Program-made: the position numbers and the translations under genes | Assembly: GCF_963921235.1 (NCBI RefSeq) | Contig: NC_086097.1 | Coordinates: forward strand, 149,112,001 to 149,176,000 | DNA: 64,000 nucleotides | Reading direction: 5' to 3' | Source of the DNA: Mobula hypostoma | Taxonomy: Eukaryota | The notes under the pieces: model-generated | The model's input: the letters and a program-made list of their open reading frames with translations, nothing else | Told to the model about the DNA's origin: nothing | Databases searched by the model: none | Shown: positions 2,980-60,754 of the stretch, in pieces | Layout of the letters: every line of letters starts with the position of its first letter | How positions within the stretch are numbered: the first letter of the stretch is position 1

Positions 2980-3860
2980 CTGTCAGTTTGCAGATGACAT
3001 CAAGGTTGGTGGTGTTGTGGATAATGTAGAAGGTTGCCATAGGTTATATAATGGGACACTGACAGGGTGCAGAGCCACACTAAGTAGTGGCAGAGAGAGT
3101 TCAACCCGGAGAAGTGTGAAGTGATTCACTTTGGAAGATCGAACCTGAAGGAAGAATACAGGGTTAATGGTAAGATTCTTAGCTGTGTGGAAGAACATAA
3201 CGATCTTGGAGTTCAAATCTGCCGATCCTTAAAGTTGCTGCGCAAGTTGATAGGGTTGCTAAGAAGGCGTATGATATGTTGGCCCTCATTTCAGGGGATT
3301 GAGTTCAAAAGGCGTAATGCAGCAGCACTATAAAACTCTGGTTAGACTATACATTGAATATTGCATCCAGTTCTGGTCGCCTCATTAAAGGAAGGATGTG
3401 GAAGCTTTAGAGAGGGTGCAGAGAAGACGTACTAGGATGGAACCTGGATTAAAGAGCATGTCTTATGGAGAAAGATTGAGCAAGCCTTTGGAGCAAAGAA
3501 GGATGAGAGGTGACTTGAAAGAGGTATGTAAGATGAGAAGAAACATAGATTGAGAGGACAGCCAGAGACTTTTCCCCAGAGGTGAAATGGCTAATAAGGG
3601 GGAGGGGACATAATTTAAGATGATTTGAGGAAAATATAGGTGGGGTGTCATAGGTAAGTTTTTTACACAGGAAGTGGTGGGCGCATGGGATGTGCTGCCA
3701 GGATTGGTAAATACACTGGGGATATTTAATAAACTCACAGGGATGACAGAAAGATGGAGAGCTATGTAAGAGATAAGGGTTAGATTAATATTAAAGTAGG
3801 CACAACATTGTGGGCTGAAGGGCTTGTACTATGCTGTTATGTTTGATATTCTATGTTATA
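2980..3860 (+). mobile_element. CR1 LINE 3' fragment (degraded)
   Basis: Starts at FADD (tttgcagatgac); MIHFGRSN...YRVNGKIL; ends in a tgttctatgtt-like tail. Confidence 0.88.
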
Positions 3861-52200: not shown

Positions 52201-55200
52201 AATTTTAATTTACAGTCAAGGGCTATTCGACATTCACAGTTAATTATGCTACAATTTCTGCACCTTATTCTAAAAAATTGCTAGCACTTTAACCATTTTT
52301 TGTAAAGATTTTGACTGCTAAATGGTAGAACTTATTCCCGTAGCCTCATGAAAGCATGCCATTTCTTTCTAAAATATGAGTGGACCAGTCAATGTTGAAT
52401 GTTTTAATATCAGCATCACACTTATATTTGCAGAAAATTGATATCAATTAGTCTGATACTGAATAAAATGATTAGAGACTAGAAACAAAATATCCAGGTC
52501 CAACATTTCCCTCCCAGCTACCGTACAAATTTCCAACCTATGTCTATTGTCTCCCTTAAACAGAAGGCTACTTAATAATTTGTTTTAAAATGTCAGTGGA
52601 AGGAGACTGTTGCTCTGTTATTAAGTGCTATTAATATTTTGATATTTAGTTTATCTTGTTATTTTAATATGTAATAAAACATCAGACCTTGACTCTTATG
52701 TCACCGTATCTTAATCCCAAATGGTATGTATTTTTTCAAGTTATTCTGTAACTAAGTTGTGAAATTGCTGGGTTTTCTTTGTGGATAGTGTATGTTTCCC
52801 CTGCATCTGTCCGTTGAAGCCTGGCCCTGTCAGGAGCTTGGGCCACACATCGTAATGTAGCGTCTCAGAGCAGGTTCTCTCTTGTGAGCTCTATGATATG
52901 CATCATCATATAACATAGTTTAGAGTTGGATAACTGAGGTATTGTTGAATCAAATCATATTTCAAGTGATATTCCATCTAAGAAATGTCCAATTCCTCGG
53001 TACAAATTCAACAAACAATTGCAGTCCTGAGTCATAAGTGCTGACCAACAAAGCACTGTAGATGCTGGGCGTTTAAAATAAAAATGGAAAATTGCTGAAA
53101 ATTCACAGCAGTTCAGCCGGCAACTGTGTAGAGAGTAACAGAGGTAACATTGGCTCTTCATCAGTAATGTCATTGAGAGCTCTCCTAAAGGCTCAATGAC
53201 CTGAGAAGTTACACACTCAAAATGCTGGAGGAACTCAGCAGGCCAGGCAGCACCTGTGGAAAAGAGTACAGTCAACGTCACAGGCCGAGACTCTTCTGCA
53301 AGACTGGAGAAAAAAGATGAGGAATCAGAGTAAACAGGTGGGGGAAGGGGAGGGAGAAACACAAGGTGATGGGCGAAATGGGGAGGGGGGGAAGGGTGAA
53401 TTAAAGAGTTGGGAAGTTGATTGGTGAAAGGGATAAAGGGCTGGAGAAGGGAGAATCTAATAGGAGAGGACAAAGGGCCATGGAAGAAAGAAAAAGGAGC
53501 ACCAGAGAGAGGCAAATGGGAATGGGGAATAGAGGAAGGGAGGGGGGCATTACCAGAAGTTTGAGAAATTGATGTTCATGCCATCAGGTTGGAGGCTACC
53601 CAGACAGAATATAAAGTGTTGTTCCTCCAGCCTGAGTGTGGCCTCATCGCGACAGTAGAGGAGGCCATGGATGGACATGTTGGAATGGGAATGGGAAGTG
53701 GAATTAAAATGGATGGCTACTGGGAGATCCTCCTTTTTCTGGTGGACGGAGTCTAGGTGCTCAGTGACACAGTCTCCCAATCTATGTCAGGTCTACAAGA
53801 GGCTACACCAGGAGCACTGGATATAATAGATGACCCCAACAGGGATGAATGGACAAGGGAGTCACTAAGGGAGCGATCCCTGCGCAAAGCAGAAGGTGGG
53901 GGAAAGGGAAAGATGTGTTCGCTCCCTACCTGATTCCCTTGTCCTTGTCCCTTGTCCTGGCACCTATCTTTGCAAGCGAAACAAATGCCACACCTGCCCC
54001 TACACCTCCTCTCTCACTACTATTTAGGGCCCCAAACAGTTCTTCCAGGTGAGGCGACACTTCACCTGTGAGTCTGTTGGTGTCATCTACTGTATCTGGT
54101 GCTCCCGGTGTAGCCTCTTGTATATCGGTGAGGCCCGATGTAGGTTAGAAGACCGCTTTGCCGAGTACCTGCACTCCATCGCCAGAGAAAGAGGAATCTC
54201 CCAGTAGCCACCCATTTTAATTCCACTTCCCATTCCCATTCCCATTCCGATATATGTCCATCCATGCCCTTCACTACGGTCGTGATGAGGAGCAACACCT
54301 TATGTTCCGTCTGGGTAGCCTCCAACTTGATGACATGAACATCGACTTTTGGAACTTCCGGTAAAGCCCCCCTCCCTTCTCTCTTCCCTATTCCTATTTC
54401 CCTCTCTCACTCTATCCCTTGCCTGCCCATCACCTCCCTCTGGTGCTCCTCCCCCCATTTTCTTTCTTCCATGGCCTTCTGTCCTCTCCTATTAGATTCC
54501 CCCTTCTCCAGCCCTGTATCTCTTTCATGAATCAACTTCCCAACTCTCCACCCCTTTCCCACTTCTAGTTTTCCCTATCACCTTGTGTTTCTCCCTCCCC
54601 TCCCCACACCCTTTTACTCTGACTCCTCATCTTTTTTCTCCAGTCCTGCTGAAAAGTCTCGGCCCCAAATGTCTACCGTACTCTTTTCCATAGATGCTGC
54701 CTTGCCTATTGAGTTCCTCCAGCATTTTGTATATGTTACTTGGATTTCCAGCATCTGCAGATTTTCTCTTGTTTGTGACCTGAAAAGTTAATTATTTCTC
54801 TGTCCATAGAAACAGCCAGAACATCAATTTTTCTTGCCTCCTGTGGTAAAATCAAGCAGTTTCACACCATTTCCTCATCTAACTCATTCTATCTCGGGAA
54901 TTCACGCCTCTAGTGTTATCTAAGTCCTTCAGTCTGCCCCTCCCTCCTGTAATACAGAAGTTTTGAATTGCCCTCTTCCATCTCTAACCATTGTGGTCTT
55001 GCACAGGGGACCTGACTTTTTTACTAGTGAAAAAAGAATAAGCTTTTAAGATGGGTAAAGTCTGAAAATTGCTATTCTTCCTATATAGAATGATGGTATA
55101 TTTTTCTTTTGTCTTTTAGTTCTTGGCATATCTGTTCTCTAAAGAGAACATGATCTTGGACTCTAGGTTTGAACGTGTGGCTCCTGAGGAAATGAACCAC

Positions 55201-58200
55201 CCTCTTTCTAACTACTGGATCTCCTCCTCGCACAACACGTTAAGTAACGCTCTATATTTTTAAAATACCATTGATGAAATCTGAAGTTTCCCACCTGTTC
55301 TTCAGCTTGAAGTGTGATGTGATGTCAGATTTGACAAACCAGCATCTGGGAGCCAAATCCTGAGATTATAAATTGGGTGCAGAAAAGCAATTTAATCAGA
55401 GAAGAGGAAGTAAACACAAGGTGTGCTCATAAATTCACGGTACAGTCTGGCCCAGTTCAGACTGAATTTTCCTTTCTCCGAGTACTAAGTCAGCCCATAA
55501 GAACAACCATTCACAAAAGATCTGGAGAATTTACTATTTGCCTTTACTATTCAATATTCATTTAGTTGAGACATGGGGGTGGGTGGAAGTTTGGGAGGTG
55601 AGGTTATCCTGAGGTTCCTGCCAGGATCATTCTTGACACAGCTTTGTAAGAGCCTGTGCAAGTTGGTCCATCTGATTTCCATTCATTTTAGGTTGGAAGG
55701 TCCCAATGGGTTCATGGTCAAAACTAATGTGTCAGTGTGTGGAATCAGAGGTATGGATCTCGTCAGTGAACAAGCAGGAATTTGAGAAACTGTTTGGTGA
55801 TGTGGATTGGTTTTATTGGTGCCTATGAAACTTAATATCGGAAACTACTGGTGGGAGTGCGGATAGTGGAAGAAAAGGAACAAACAATCATGGACCTTTA
55901 TAAATTTTAGAGCATTGAATATAAGAAAGAAAGAAAAGCTGAATTGATCCAACACATTTCATTACCTTGTGACATCCCTCTACTCTAATGGAGGGAGGTT
56001 TAATTGTCACTCGCCTCACACCAGGTGTTTAGGCAGATGTGATGTTTGGGGTTTAAAGCAAAATTAAAAAGAAATTGCAATCTAAAATCTGCCACACTCC
56101 TCCTCTTTACTGTGATTTCTTAGTTAGCCACCAATACCTCCAAAATCAAATTCTTGGATGTGCTTTATACAATAAAGGAGCATGCCTTCATTACCTCAGA
56201 GTAAGTTACTACAAAACGTTAGACAGTCATCATAGTCAGAGTCATACTTTATTGAAGGAGGATAAGAGGAGAGATGATAGAGGTATACAAGATAATAAGA
56301 AGAATAGATAGAGTGGATAGCCAGCGCCTCTTCCCCAGGGCACCACTGCTCAATACAAGAGGACATGGCTTTAAGGTAAGGGGTGGGAAGTTCAAGGGGG
56401 ATATTAGAGGAAGGTTTTTTTACTCAGAGAGTGGTTGGTGTGTGGAATGCACTGCCTGAGTCAGTGGTGGAGGCAGATACACTAGTGAAGTTTAAGAGAC
56501 TACTAGACAGGTATATGGAGGAATCTAAGGTGGGGGCTTATATGGGAGGCAGGGTTTGAGGGTCGGCACAACATAGTGGGCCGAAGGGCCTGTACTGTGC
56601 TGTACTATTCTATGTTCTATGTTCAATCATTCCCTAATCTCTTCTACCTCTGTATCATTTTCATCCTCTTCCTCTATTTCCTGATAACCAAATGGTTCAT
56701 GCTTGTTTTCTCCAGCAGCTTGGAGAGTTATGCCCTAAGGAAATGATAAAGATATTCAATGCTAAATTCTTTTAATGTCTTACAATACCTGGAATTCCAA
56801 GGGCCACTTTGCATCTGCACGCTTGCACTCCTGCCTGTAATCATTTCAGTTAAGGGTAACATTGAAAGAATGGCTGAATTGCTCTTCATCTCTTCCAGGT
56901 ATTTGACCGGAGACCAGTTTTCCAGTGAGTCGTCATTAGAAGCCTATGCCCGATGTTTGAGGATGGGATGCCGCTGTATAGAACGTAAACCTTCTCTCCT
57001 TTATCAATGTAGCTTTTAGATTTTCATCTTCCTTTGATGCTGACTCCAATGATGATGTGTTTCCCCTAAACTTCAGCTTGAACGGTGAATTTCTATGACA
57101 GTCAGTAAGACTAGGACCAAGCTTGTTAGTGATCATTAGCTTAGCCTTTCTCCTCTCACCTATGCTATGAGGTATTCAGAAGTACAAAAGCTGGCGGATT
57201 TTCCACCACTTACCTTAGAGTGATGACAAATGCAAATGAAATATATGTTCTCTCTTGAGTTACTCAGCAATAAGTGACCTTGAAACATTGTTCTTACTTT
57301 ATCTTCGCTTTTAACATGTTTTCTGTATAAATATTGTGGCAGGAAGTAAACAAGGCTTTGGTATCATACCATTTGTGGAAAATAAGATCTGGCTCAGGGT
57401 ACTTATAATTTTTTTAATTAAAGAGTGTCCATTATTTCTGCATGGTGATGAAAGAAGGTTAACAAAAGGGATGAATCTTTCAACATGTTTACTGGTCAAT
57501 GCTGACTTATGACTAGAAATTATGCACTTTATTTGTAATAGTGAAAGAAAGCTATGAATTGGTGATAGAAAAAGTGACAAGAAAACAAGGTCCCAATTAA
57601 ATTGCATTTTATTATATTTCAAACATATCATCAGTCATTAATTTATATGTAGGTGCCTTTTTAACACTCTCTGCTTCTTCATGACATCTCCAATTTACTG
57701 CGATTTGGATTCAGTTTTACCAGAAGATAAAATGCACCCTCTTGTGGAGGTTCTGAAAAGTTCACTCACTAAGACTGAAGGTCTTTAAAATAAATCTGTG
57801 CTGTTACTAACTGATTATCTGCTTTGCAGTGGACTGCTGGGACGGCCCAGATGACCTGCCAATTATTTATCATGGGCACACACTTACCTCCAAAATCAAA
57901 TTCTTGGATGTGCTTTATACAATAAAGGAGCATGCCTTCATTACCTCAGAGTAAGTTACTACAACACATTAGACAGTGATCATAGTCATAGTCATACTTT
58001 ATTGATCCTGGGGGAAATTGGTTTTCGTTACAGTTGCACCATAAATAATAAATAGTAATAAAACCATAAATAATTAAATAGTAATATGTAAATTATGCCA
58101 GGAAATAAGTCCAGGACCAGCCTATTTGCTCAGGGTGTCTGACCCTCCAAGGGAGGAGTTGTAAAGTTTGATGGCCACAGGCAGGAATGACTTCTTTTGA

Positions 58201-60754
58201 CGCTCAGTGTTGCATCTCGTTGGAATGAGTTTCTGGCTGAAAGTACTCCAGTGCCCAACCAGTACATTATGTAGTGGATGGGAGACATTGTCCAAGATGG
58301 CATGCAACTTGGACAGCATCCTCTTTTCAGACACCACCATCAGAGAGTCTAGTTCCATCCCCACAACATCACTGGCCTTACGAATGAGTTTGTTGATTCT
58401 GTTGGTGTCTGCTACCCTCAGCCTGCTGCCCCAGCACACAACAGCAAACATGATAGCACTGGCCACCACAGACTCGTAGAACATCCTCAGCATCGTCCAG
58501 CAGATGTTAAAGGACCTCAGTCTCCTCAGGAAATAGAGACGGCTCTGACCCTTCTTGTAGACAGCCTCAGTGTTCTTTGACCAGTCCAGTTTATTGTCAA
58601 TTCGTATCCCTAGGTATTAGTAATCCTCCACCATGTCCATACTGACCCCCTGGATGGAAACAGGGGTCACCGGTACCTTAGCTCTCCTCAGGTCTACCAC
58701 CAGCTCCTTAGTCTTTTTCACATGAAGCTGCAGATAATTCTGCTCACACCATGTGACGAAGTTTCCTACCGTAGCCCTGTACTCAGCCTCATCTCCCTTG
58801 CTGATGCATCCAACTATGGTTGAGTCATCAGATTCTGCCATAGTTGGATTCTGCCAATCTTTATAAGATTGCAAACAAGTAGTTCAAGTATTCAGTTTCT
58901 CTAAGTAATTCTTTATAAATTGCATCATGATCTTCAATTTCCTTTGAACCAAAATATCCATGCTTGTTCTATCCTTCCCAAATTGTCCTGTCTCCACTTC
59001 CCTTTTCTAATAGAAACATAGAAAACCTACAGCACAATACAGGCCCTTCGGCCCACAAAGTTGTGCCGAACATGTCCCTACCTTAGAAATTACTAGGCTT
59101 ACCCATAGCCCTCTATTTTTCTAAGCTCCATGTACCTATCCAAAAGTCTGTTAAAAGACCCTATCATATCCGCCTCCACCACCATTGCCGGCAGCCCGTT
59201 CCACACACTCACCACTCTCTGCGTAAGAAACTTACCTCTGACATCTCCTCTGTACCTGCTCCCCAGCACCTTAAACCTGTGACCTCTTGTGGCAACCATT
59301 TCAGCCCTGGGAAAAAGCCTCTGACTATTCACACGATCAATGTGTTTCATCATCATATACACCTCTATCAGATCACCTCTCATCCTCCGTCGCTCCAAAG
59401 AGAAAAGGTCGAGTTCGCTCAAATTGTTTTCATAAGGCATGCTCCCCAATCCAGGCAACATCTTTGTAAATCTCCTCTGCACCCTTTCTATGGCTTCCAT
59501 ACCCTTCCTGTAGTGAGGCGACCAGACTCGGACCCCAAGATCCTTTAGACTTCAGACACTTTACCCATTATTCCCATTTTATCTTTGTTCAATCTTTTCA
59601 CAGTCCTATTCACACATCCTGTTCATCTTAGGGTTCTCAATCCTCCAAACTTGGGCCTCTCTTTTCCTCATCTCAATACCATTTACAGGTAGTATTATTT
59701 GTAAATGTGAGATCAGTTTTCACAAATCTGATAGCTATACTCATTTTTTTCCTTCTCTGCTGTTAACCTTAACTCTTAAATCCCCAATCACTTTTCTATC
59801 AAGTTAAAAATGATTCCCACTGATTTTTTTTTATCTTACACCTGTTTCATCACCCTGGATTATTTTATATTTCCATGTCTATTCCATGGACTGGAATACT
59901 CGAAGTAAACCCTCAGTTTCCTCTCTCACCTCACTGAAGGTCATCATCTTTGATTTGCATTGGGATATCACTTCAGATATTGCTCAGTGTTTGGGTTTCA
60001 GAAGCAATTTTAATTTCCAGAATGTCTGTGGTCTGGCATAGTTGGACAACCTATCTCAAGGATAAAAACAAAGGGCCGATGCAAGTTTCATTCCCAATTG
60101 AAAGCAGTGAGACCTTTCATCAGGTGGTAAGCTAAGATTATTTATTTGCTCAACCTAAAAAAAAGCTCAAAATTAATGAGATCCATTTCATTAATATAAT
60201 TTTCATTTATATGGTGTATTTCACATCCTCATGTCTATCCAAGTTCCAAGTCAGTCAAGTCAAAGTAAAGATTCTTATGTCAACACACAGACAAAAACTG
60301 TTGCTAGTTGTACAACTAGTTACATGTGGAAAGGGCAATGAATAATCAGTTAATCTATATTTGGTTGAGTGATAACTCAATGCCAGGTTACTGGCAGAAC
60401 ACTATTCTTTTGCAGCTTCAACACATCTGGTCCTCTAGAGTAGGAATCTTTCAATAGTCAAGTGTTTGCAAACAAGTGTTTTTTTAATAATACCTTTTTT
60501 GGTAATTAATTTTTATTTTCTGAAATGAGAATGATGAATCCAATCTGAACCAAAACTATATTAGTTGCCACGTGTATAATTCCAGGTATCCCATAATCCT
60601 CTCTATCGAAGACCATTGCAGTGTTGTGCAGCAGCGAAATATGGCATCTTACTTCAAGAAGGTTTTTGGAGACATGTTGTTGACCAAACCTGTGGACATC
60701 AATGCAGATGAACTTCCATCACCCAATCAGCTGAAGAAGAAAATCCTGATAAAG
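14429..60754 (+). CDS. PLCG1: Phospholipase C gamma (PLCG1 or PLCG1-like paralogue), partial multi-exon CDS of 11 exons; gene extends beyond both window ends
   Basis: Manually spliced exons 14429-14522, 18328-18375, 38175-38259, 44349-44429, 47622-47656, 48357-48429, 50034-50135, 55120-55238, 56899-56984, 57830-57950 and 60586-60754 are all AG/GT bounded with compatible phases. Translation: [76 protein letters not shown]...[61 protein letters not shown]...[20 protein letters not shown]...[14 protein letters not shown]. Both catalytic histidines (SSHNT, IYHGH) are present. Confidence 0.95.
14690..16970 (+). mobile_element. Penelope-like retroelement (degraded RT and GIY-YIG endonuclease)
   Basis: RT remnant atggatgttcaatgcctttacacctcc (MDV.SLYTS); GIY-YIG remnant [15 protein letters not shown]...HFNSPS; ends in the catagatgctgc terminal repeat. 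Confidence 0.75.
17100..17420 (+). mobile_element. V-SINE-like element
   Basis: gggcagcacagtagtgaggtt...ccaggattcaaccctgac head; V-domain. Confidence 0.7.
17450..17910 (-). mobile_element. CR1 3' fragment (degraded)
   Basis: Similar to the other minus-strand CR1 ends. Confidence 0.7.
18328..18375 (+). CDS. PLCG1: PLC-gamma exon (~exon 4), 48 bp
   Basis: ttgcag|GTGG...AACAG|gtgagt; encodes [15 protein letters not shown]. Confidence 0.93.
18690..19770 (-). mobile_element. Rex1/Babar fragment with a nested CR1 3' end (~18915-19415, minus)
   Basis: CR1 [34 protein letters not shown]... is flanked on both sides by Rex1-like ORF2 sequence. Confidence 0.8.
21392..21449. promoter_or_regulatory. 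Candidate RFX / CRE / CCAAT composite element
   Basis: TGATTGG, TGACATCA and GTTGCT motifs clustered in non-repetitive intron sequence. Confidence 0.35.
24772..27880 (-). mobile_element. Near full-length Rex1/Babar LINE (APE endonuclease plus RT), disrupted by stops and frameshifts
   Basis: Minus ORFs: [22 protein letters not shown] (APE); [53 protein letters not shown] (RT); 3' tail (gattct)n. Confidence 0.93.
28080..28790 (+). mobile_element. CR1 3' fragment with a nested SINE (~28465-28650, minus)
   Basis: CR1 C-terminal sequence interrupted by SINE tail sequence (atttttcacatgtacatttgaaac...tctttggattgtgggagg). Confidence 0.7.
29690..29905 (-). mobile_element. Deu-domain SINE (SacSINE-like) fragment
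   Basis: gagaggacaggcaaagccttttggtttatcatctcacacgaaagacaacatcccc resembles the reverse Deu-SINE core; related relics at ~22010-22190, ~41780-42030 and ~47980-48220. Confidence 0.5.
30480..30690 (-). mobile_element. V-SINE-like element
   Basis: Reverse V-SINE motifs (cacatctttggtaagtgggagg...ggtcaggatcaaacccgg...attgtgttgcc). Confidence 0.6.
33484..33585 (+). promoter_or_regulatory. Candidate intronic core promoter (RFX X-box, TATA, Inr)
   Basis: GTTGCTATGGTGAT at 33484-33497, TATAAAAG at 33531-33538, TCACTTT at 33561-33567, GTAAGT at 33580-33585. Confidence 0.3.
34237..35839 (+). mobile_element. Complete Tc1/mariner DNA transposon (DD34E, IR/DR type), 1603 bp
   Basis: TA duplications at 34235-34236 and 35840-35841; 212-bp TIRs at 34237-34448 and 35628-35839 with internal AAGTTGGGA direct repeats; transposase between them. 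Confidence 0.96.
34598..35619 (+). pseudogene. Tc1 transposase (~340 aa), inactivated
   Basis: ATG at 34598, in-frame TAG at 34649-34651, first catalytic D changed to G (WSGES, 35057-35059), -1 frameshift in the VWGC G-run (~35182); QQDNA...SPDLSPIEN gives D34E spacing. Confidence 0.93.
35850..36270 (-). mobile_element. CR1 3' fragment (degraded)
   Basis: Minus translation [17 protein letters not shown]...ILRGL. Confidence 0.75.
37685..37840. repeat. Palindromic Penelope terminal-repeat relic
   Basis: ctctaggaagaggtacagtcgacatttcgggccaag / ctcagcctgaaacgtcgactgtacctcttcctagag inverted arms, followed by the element 3' end. Confidence 0.8.
38175..38259 (+). CDS. PLCG1: PLC-gamma exon (~exon 5, EF hand), 85 bp
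   Basis: aacag|TATC...TTG|gtaagt; encodes [28 protein letters not shown]. Confidence 0.94.
38735..39210 (-). mobile_element. CR1 3' fragment, same family as 885-1665
   Basis: [23 protein letters not shown]; strong nucleotide similarity to 890-1330. Confidence 0.88.
39530..41385 (+). mobile_element. Rex1/Babar LINE, 5'-truncated, with a nested antisense Rex1-type fragment
   Basis: [47 protein letters not shown]; tail tcttgaatcttga. Confidence 0.88.
40057..40533 (-). mobile_element. Young Rex1/Babar 3' fragment inserted in the LINE above
   Basis: [24 protein letters not shown]...[15 protein letters not shown]; nearly identical to 58000-58445. Confidence 0.9.
41540..41740. repeat. Inverted pair of Penelope terminal repeats
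   Basis: atgctggaggaac...tctatggagaggaataa and ttattcctctccatagatg...gttcctccagcac form inverted arms. Confidence 0.75.
43300..43640 (+). mobile_element. CR1 3' end (degraded)
   Basis: gagactagaactaggaggccat...gctgaagggccagtatctgtgctata. Confidence 0.65.
44349..44429 (+). CDS. PLCG1: PLC-gamma exon (~exon 6), 81 bp
   Basis: gacag|GAA...TCA|gtgagt; encodes [27 protein letters not shown]. Confidence 0.92.
45720..46440 (+). mobile_element. Rex1/Babar 3' fragment containing a (TTA)n tract
   Basis: [35 protein letters not shown]; 3' UTR and tail. Confidence 0.85.
47622..47656 (+). CDS. PLCG1: PLC-gamma exon (~exon 7), 35 bp
   Basis: T-rich tract then tacag|GTA...CTAAG|gtaagg; encodes [12 protein letters not shown]; needed to restore phase between the flanking exons. 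Confidence 0.88.
48357..48429 (+). CDS. PLCG1: PLC-gamma exon (~exon 8), 73 bp
   Basis: cacag|GAAT...AAG|gtaagc; encodes [24 protein letters not shown]. Confidence 0.93.
48510..48710 (+). mobile_element. CR1 3' end
   Basis: gctgaaggacctgtattgtgc...gttctatgttctatg tail. Confidence 0.75.
50034..50135 (+). CDS. PLCG1: PLC-gamma exon (~exon 9), 102 bp
   Basis: cctag|GAA...GAG|gtagat; encodes [34 protein letters not shown]. Confidence 0.93.
50980..51725 (-). mobile_element. Probable non-autonomous Rex1-related retroelement
   Basis: GC-richer non-coding body, aagatg-type 5' start, and a LINE-like 3' tail with short (ttgaac/ttaaac) repeats. Confidence 0.5.
53205..54780. mobile_element. Head-to-head pair of 5'-truncated Penelope-like elements (minus ~53205-53918, plus ~53919-54780)
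   Basis: GIY-YIG C-terminal peptide ([16 protein letters not shown]...[18 protein letters not shown]) on both strands; terminal repeats at both outer ends. Confidence 0.85.
55120..55238 (+). CDS. PLCG1: PLC-gamma exon (~exon 10, start of X box), 119 bp
   Basis: tttag|TTC...CAACAC|gttaagt; encodes [40 protein letters not shown]. Confidence 0.94.
56135..56255 (+). repeat. 121-bp direct duplication of 57885-58005 (3' half of exon 12, donor and start of intron)
   Basis: Offset is exactly 1750 bp; the 66 exonic nt are identical; 4 mismatches in the intronic part. Confidence 0.97.
56256..56624 (+). mobile_element. Young 5'-truncated CR1 3' end fused to the duplicated exon piece
   Basis: [26 protein letters not shown]...TRGHGFKV; (tatgttc)n tail. 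Confidence 0.9.
56899..56984 (+). CDS. PLCG1: PLC-gamma exon (~exon 11, X box), 86 bp
   Basis: tccag|GTAT...GAAC|gtaaac; encodes [28 protein letters not shown]. Confidence 0.95.
57830..57950 (+). CDS. PLCG1: PLC-gamma exon (~exon 12, X box), 121 bp
   Basis: TACTAAC branch point at 57805-57811, ttgcag|TGGAC...TCAGA|gtaagt; encodes [41 protein letters not shown]. Confidence 0.95.
57980..58832 (-). mobile_element. Young Rex1/Babar 3' fragment 30 bp downstream of exon 12
   Basis: [18 protein letters not shown]...[33 protein letters not shown]; tail (gactat)n. Confidence 0.92.
59005..59525 (-). mobile_element. Young CR1 3' end
   Basis: Open [20 protein letters not shown]...[14 protein letters not shown]. 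Confidence 0.92.
60586..60754 (+). CDS. PLCG1: PLC-gamma exon (~exon 13, end of X box), 169 bp
   Basis: tccag|GTAT...AAAG|gtagat; encodes [56 protein letters not shown]. Confidence 0.95.

Follow-up and report, generated by a model that had tools for sequence, protein, structure and literature searches.

A piece of a coding exon, together with its splice donor, sits at the 5′ end of a CR1-type retroelement in an upstream intron of the same gene. The locus raises two questions, namely how the piece came to be joined to the element, and whether it can act as a poison exon. It lies in the window, by which we mean the whole stretch of 64,000 nucleotides of Mobula hypostoma DNA analyzed here. The features are listed in Table 1.

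Table 1. Features of the composite insertion, its host gene and related loci (window positions unless a contig is named).
Feature	Position	Strand	Remarks
PLCG1-like exon 10	55120..55238	+	119 nt, donor CAC/GTTAAG
Pre-insertion intron flank, pyrimidine tract, cryptic acceptor AGs 56122-56123 and 56126-56127	56101..56127	+	flank aligns in organisms C and D
Possible 77-nt pseudo-exon (73 nt from 56128)	56124..56200	+	predicted premature stop in both forms
Left target-site duplication CAAT	56132..56135	+	T common with the copied piece
Locally templated copy	56135..56255	+	66 nt exon 12 end, 29 nt intron 12, 26 nt antisense LINE tail
CR1-type LINE, 5′-truncated	56254..56624	+	371 nt, TTCTATG-type tail, 98% to nearest copies
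Right target-site duplication CAAT	56624..56627	+	C common with the CR1 tail
PLCG1-like exon 11	56899..56984	+	86 nt
PLCG1-like exon 12	57830..57950	+	121 nt, PI-PLC X domain
Source of copied piece	57885..58005	+	
Antisense Rex1-like LINE, 5′-truncated	57980..58832	-	95-97% to other copies, (TCATAG)n tail on + strand
Other PLC-gamma-like loci	G000:C2:177304072-177304191; C55:52334199-52334318		
L092	3845-3939 and 5490-6010 (G000:C1:202326473-202336472)		second CR1 insertion with local copy

The composite insertion and its host gene

The host gene is a PLCG1-like (phospholipase C-gamma) paralogue, and the insertion lies inside intron 10. Mapping a ray protein onto 464 kb resolved exons 1-15 cleanly and agrees with the earlier numbering of exons 10-12. 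The exon 12 product is nearer to PLC-gamma-1 than to gamma-2 among solved structures (66 vs 52 bits), and the best full-length relatives of the host protein are annotated as gamma-1-like in sharks and rays. Two other close PLC-gamma-like loci occur in the genome (83% and 75% to the exon 12 peptide), and the window gene is likely one of three PLC-gamma paralogues, the gamma-1-like one.

A sequence-only reading of the window had claimed a 121-bp duplication, and the duplication is real. Positions 56135-56255 are an ungapped 121-nt copy of 57885-58005 with 96.7% identity, the four mismatches falling at 56215, 56218, 56228 and 56239. The end of exon 12 (56135-56200 in the copy) and the AGA/GTAAGT donor, which belongs to the intron 12 part, are both identical to the source, as had also been stated. 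The other 55 nt had been called intronic, which is correct for 29 nt; the remaining 26 nt (57980-58005 in the source, 56230-56255 in the copy) are the 3′ tail of an antisense LINE that was overlooked. This element at 57980-58832, which we take to be Rex1-like, is 853 nt long, contains stops and is high-copy, with at least 39 other copies at 95-97% identity, 11 of which were aligned, and a domain match to PF09004. Because its tail sits inside the copy, the copy is younger than the insertion of the antisense LINE. Rays are among the groups reported, in the accessible text of one study, to be richest in Rex1 elements (PMC13343379). In a genome search the duplicated part matched at just these two places (at least two, with 40 of the 475 candidates scored). 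A processed retrocopy of the host mRNA was rejected, as the copy runs unspliced over the exon-intron border and carries no poly(A).

The element at 56254-56624, presumably of the CR1 family, is 97-98% identical to at least 39 sister copies among the matches listed. These sister copies reach further in the 5′ direction, and the 3′ tail repeats are present in the window element. The direct join of the copy to a 5′-truncated element, proposed earlier, holds: the CR1 match begins at 56254 and overlaps the copy by GA (56254-56255), a 2-nt microhomology. GA is found at the junction position in all eight sister copies compared, and TGA in two of the eight. The short CAAT repeat, suspected before of being a target duplication, brackets the whole composite and fits the points at which the outgroup contigs leave and rejoin the stretch. 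Target duplications of at least 5 nt were found at 33 of 139 copies of the family, compared with 14.5 expected from mismatched pairs, and the family agrees with the peak of 3-5 bp given for the L2 and CR1 clades in the accessible part of an earlier report (PMC4245944).

The insertion in other organisms

Four organisms, A to D, were compared as DNA contigs over the stretch; such contigs drop variants. Organism A, from the same sample as the possible source of the window, has contigs covering 55000-56164 and 56600-57884 with no differences, and organism B, a sister species, has contigs covering 55000-56164 and 56591-57884 with both outer junctions as in A. Only these two outer junctions were seen. 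The copy-to-CR1 junction did not appear among the contig rows listed for A and B, nor did the letters of the copy at 56215 and 56218, where the contigs are of source type at about double depth. Over the shared piece, contig depth was 19.4 in A, compared with 7.7 and 11.2, and 16.8 in B, compared with 8.5 and 7.9. The absence of the middle junction and of the copy's private letters would suit an assembly artefact, but the outer junctions recur in the independently built contigs of A and B and the depth over the shared part is about doubled in both, and we regard an artefact as hardly credible.

In organism C, the contig departs from the stretch at 56131. Organism D has one contig of 908 nt, of which 741 letters lie on 56624-57328, while the other 167 fit the left flank at about 55963-56129 by depth arithmetic, leaving no room for the insert. 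An empty site, which the sequence-only reading had suggested seeking in relatives, is therefore found in C and D, as read from contig pieces and depth. Because both outer junctions are present in A and B and the site is empty in C and D, a joint arrival of the copy and the CR1 element is most likely. Past 57884, the exon 12 contigs of C and D continue for 392 and 367 letters, respectively, and since the match of C ends at the start of the antisense tail, the antisense LINE is likely absent from C and D as well. Divergence over the listed pieces is 1.3% between A and B, 4.3% between A and C, and 5.8% between A and D. The order of events would be the split from C and D, the antisense LINE, the CR1 element with its copy, and then the split of A and B. 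Individuals A and B both look homozygous for the insertion, because no empty allele broke their contigs.

A survey of CR1 5′ ends

The survey took in 139 sister copies of CR1, from 158 listed places, at their 5′ ends; these are the nearest neighbors of four queries and not a random sample. One of them, L092, shares the build of the window insertion, with local, non-exonic sequence at its 5′ end. The L092 piece is 95 nt long, matches at 92% and comes from unique sequence about 1.7 kb off on the same strand, and the insertion shows microhomology with CR1, some 11 bases that lack a template, and a target duplication of 7 nt. Unlike the window copy, the piece was taken from the opposite side of the insertion, and no exon was recognized in it. 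Clear local captures number one in the 139 copies (95% interval 0.02-3.9%), a count that by itself is not separable from background. Around random anchors, a locus-unique duplicate was found at 10 of 556, nine in tandem arrays or near-tandem duplications and one dispersed; L092 was called on its target duplication and microhomology. The survey suggests that local captures at CR1 5′ ends are uncommon but recurrent. The contig depth of the CR1 family, a rough guide, is about 100,000 times single-copy depth, and by back-of-envelope arithmetic hundreds of captures, a few of them with a donor, would be expected per genome.

Ten survey rows in nine of the 139 loci were set aside. Among the rejected candidates, CR1 itself is inverted or folded back in L094 and L072, L125 is an internal CR1 piece, L149, a less clear case, looks like an inverted piece of a tandem array nearby, and L110, L158, L176 and L178 are dispersed repeats present in 4-24 other loci. 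The inversion in L094, at oriented position 3545, is a 208-nt inverted copy of the element's own sequence at the 5′ junction; in the accessible part of one source, 5′ inversions are reported almost exclusively for L1 in cell assays (PMC4245944). At L085 (G000:C66:974832-984831), the CR1 copy lies inside a tandem array of ~25-nt units, which takes up most of the 10 kb.

Origin of the copied piece

Templating from the neighboring locus during CR1 integration had been proposed for the copy, and the evidence supports it: the CAAT duplication encloses both parts, the GA microhomology lies at their junction, both parts are present in A and B and neither in C and D, and L092 is built alike. We lean towards a composite that was copied from local DNA as the 5′ end of the element was joined, with a half-exon that is probably spliced out like other decoys. 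The antisense Rex1-like LINE, whose tail is seen inside the copy, would already have been in intron 12. Target-primed reverse transcription would have started at CAAT and stopped after 371 nt, in line with known CR1 biology. The free 3′ end may then have invaded the locus at exon 12, about 1.3 kb downstream, and copied 121 nt. The copied strand may have annealed to the CR1 cDNA through the observed GA, closing the insertion with the CAAT duplication and giving the composite now found in A and B. The copied donor and the pre-existing cryptic acceptor would form a 73/77-nt pseudo-exon that nearly every transcript skips, and any transcripts that included it would be removed by nonsense-mediated decay (NMD), with no regulatory role.

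What counts against a DNA template is that a sense, unspliced copy suits nascent pre-mRNA equally well. In the same event, the CR1 reverse transcriptase could have switched at GA to nascent, unspliced PLCG1-like pre-mRNA and copied 121 nt from it. The copy continues the CR1 cDNA in the same direction, and RNA-to-RNA template switching is reported for L1 in the accessible part of one study (PMC11702581). We nevertheless judge an RNA template unlikely: DNA templating yields an identical product and is, in the available text of another study, the reported source of LINE 5′ extra nucleotides (PMC4760211), and the L092 piece came from the other side of its insertion.

The two parts could also have arrived in independent events: a DNA break repaired with a templated insertion, and a CR1 element that later landed at the edge of this insertion. 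The CAAT duplication is short, sharing one base with the copy and another with the CR1 tail, and the non-exonic divergence of 4/55 exceeds the ~2% distance of the CR1 element to its sisters. This divergence, however, fits the age bracket, with P = 0.21 at its older limit, and the placement of GA exactly at the junction, the duplication that encloses both parts, their joint absence in C and D and the same pattern at L092 make two events improbable.

A 3′ transduction is to our minds a far-fetched origin. In this reading, RNA of the antisense Rex1-like LINE that ran on into exon 12 would have been copied by reverse transcription where the CR1 insertion made its second nick. The copy does end in the Rex1-like tail and spans exactly the 3′ flank of that LINE, but its end at 56135 bears neither poly(A) nor a tail, a promoter is unlikely in a 5′-truncated, stop-containing source element of 853 nt, and the L092 piece lacks any such element. 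Other dispersed copies of the LINE flank were looked for, and none was present among the 40 scored places.

Mismatches between copy and source

The four mismatches all lie outside the 66 exonic nucleotides, as the sequence-only reading had noted, and it had taken this as a hint of gene conversion or constraint. The observation stands and the hint does not. Under a uniform null, the probability that all four miss the exonic bases is 0.04, which increases to about 0.1 under a null that lets the source exon be constrained, and the probability of zero exonic changes given the age bracket is 0.17-0.58. At 56218 the source changed, as organisms B, C and D carry the G of the copy. At 56239 the copy changed, with T in all ten displayed LINE sisters, and at 56215 it likely changed too, B and C having a C at this position that D does not show. 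Gene conversion or constraint on the exonic part was rejected, as the pattern is not significant (P 0.1-0.6) and at least one of the four changes arose in the source.

Splicing potential of the copy

The two AGs upstream of the copy end at 56123 and 56127, giving the 77- and 73-nt forms that had been described, and the reading-frame effects stated for both forms agree with the sequence. The 77-nt form runs into an immediate TAG at 56125-56127, and the 73-nt form shifts the frame and reaches a TGA at 56926-56928 in exon 11, which is 56 nt ahead of the exon 11/12 junction with many more junctions after it. Inclusion is thus predicted to introduce a premature stop of the kind that triggers NMD. 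Reading of the copy in frame was rejected, as neither acceptor restores the frame of exon 12.

The strength of these sites was gauged with a crude splice score, trained on the host gene's own 14 acceptors and 15 donors from exons 1-15. The acceptor at 56124 outscores 6 of the 14 acceptors in use, along with 98% of the decoy AGs (3374 in all), and that at 56128 outscores 2 of the 14. The copied donor, called strong before, outscores 4 of the 15 real donors and is middling by the standard of its own gene. Across the 54,431 nt of introns 3-14, 53 other acceptor/donor pairs are at least as strong, about one per kb. Pseudoexons are said to outnumber real exons tenfold in the accessible part of one report (PMC1935003). 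What counts against silence is that the copy, unlike ordinary decoys, holds sequence from a genuine exon and a donor that is known to function. For this reason inclusion at a low level is plausible, and we consider detectable inclusion of the pseudo-exon possible but rather doubtful.

In short reads, the junctions 55238>56124 and 55238>56128 are the only ones specific to the pseudo-exon. The junction 56200>56899 equals an exon 12-to-11 back-splice and is ambiguous in reads that have fewer than 67 nt to its left, since the two donors are preceded by the same 66 nt. The copy is therefore a practical trap, mimicking such a back-splice in RNA data.

A role of the copy as an NMD switch, which the sequence-only reading had put forward, is possible, and the copy is probably without function. 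That the pseudo-exon is measurably included and is now a regulated poison exon, tuning PLCG1-like expression through NMD, we hold to be highly improbable. Premature stops arise in both forms upstream of many junctions, the acceptor score falls inside the real range, A shows no change in the exonic part or the donor, the first 30 nt or more agree with the exon of B itself, and the composite has been kept in two species. Set against this, zero exonic changes are expected by chance at the probabilities given above, the element postdates the ~4% split from organism C, decoy pairs of the same or greater strength occur at the density already noted, and keeping coding letters would serve no need. Poison exons are defined, in the available text of one source, as conserved and alternatively spliced (PMC8819188). 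Here the sequence is present in two of the four organisms and absent beyond ~4% divergence, and it is not conserved in that sense. Equally far from likely is a broader scheme, in which elasmobranch CR1 insertion would routinely copy host pieces of ~100 nt, pieces bearing a working donor and its exonic enhancers would serve as one-step NMD cassettes, and this one would have been co-opted as a young, regulated poison exon in two sister species. If inclusion were true, the insertion would represent a one-step route to new poison exons, with the donor supplied by the host gene and not by the element.

Relation to known systems

The primary paper cited for LINE 5′ extra nucleotides templated from flanking DNA is Kajikawa 2012 (Gene 505:345). 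The window insertion shows the features of a flank-templated LINE, that is, truncation, extra sequence matching nearby DNA, microhomology with a target duplication, and joint absence at the empty site. Its origin, as far as these features tell, is a known by-product of LINE insertion. Extra 5′ nucleotides derived from the flank are reported for zebrafish L2-clade LINEs in the accessible parts of three sources (PMC4245944, PMC2666801, PMC4760211), and locally templated DNA is reported at L1 insertions in part of a fourth (PMC11702581).

The closest likeness is to ZfL2-2 and ZfL2-1, where a 5′-truncated LINE of the CR1 group carries sequence derived from its neighborhood at the joint of target and element, with 1-2 nt of microhomology and a target duplication of 3-5 nt, as described in the available text (PMC4245944, PMC4760211). 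Those cases, as described there, involve several extra nucleotides in cultured cells, whereas the piece in the window measures 121 nt, comes from a site ~1.3 kb off, is a germ-line feature fixed in two species and takes in an exon end with its donor. L1 insertions in human cell clones likewise combine a retroelement and a local genomic copy in one insertion; the window differs in being a CR1 insertion in the germ line of a fish, with capture of a splice site on the window side, as far as the accessible text on L1 allows the comparison. Templated sequence insertion polymorphisms also place a templated copy at a new site, and one class bears LINE hallmarks, but in the part of the source available the templates are distant, and the window copy is local and fused to the 5′ end of the element (PMC5110952). 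Pseudoexons and poison exons share with the window an intronic segment that lies between usable splice sites and, if spliced in, would bring a premature stop. They differ, going by the accessible parts of two sources, in that the donor and exonic sequence here were copied from a real exon and did not arise from a point mutation or an element, and in that poison exons are defined by conservation and inclusion, whereas the window pseudo-exon is a prediction from sequence (PMC1935003, PMC8819188). A literature search, with subscription journals and supplements outside its scope, found no paper that treats the window locus or describes a donor captured at the 5′ end of a CR1 element. The window composite is a clean germ-line case, and a dated one, of a CR1 5′ end that captured local sequence.

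Other features of the region

Three further observations concern annotation and repeats around the insertion. At 56130-56201, the copy draws a 24-residue tblastn match out of exon order and is a likely source of annotation error. The CR1 element at 56254-56624 (+) forms an inverted pair with a CR1-type copy at 59010-59391 (-), flanking exons 11-12; the pair matches at 69% over 385 nt, and at 93% over 42 nt at the 3′ ends. Exons 11 and 12 total 207 nt, a multiple of three, and the pair could favor back-splicing or joint skipping of both exons. In intron 9, inverted copies of a dispersed repeat lie at 53206-53842 and 54074-54741, 231 nt apart, with 74% identity over 693 nt with gaps and segments of up to 92%. 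They end 380 nt before exon 10 and could form a long hairpin in the pre-mRNA.
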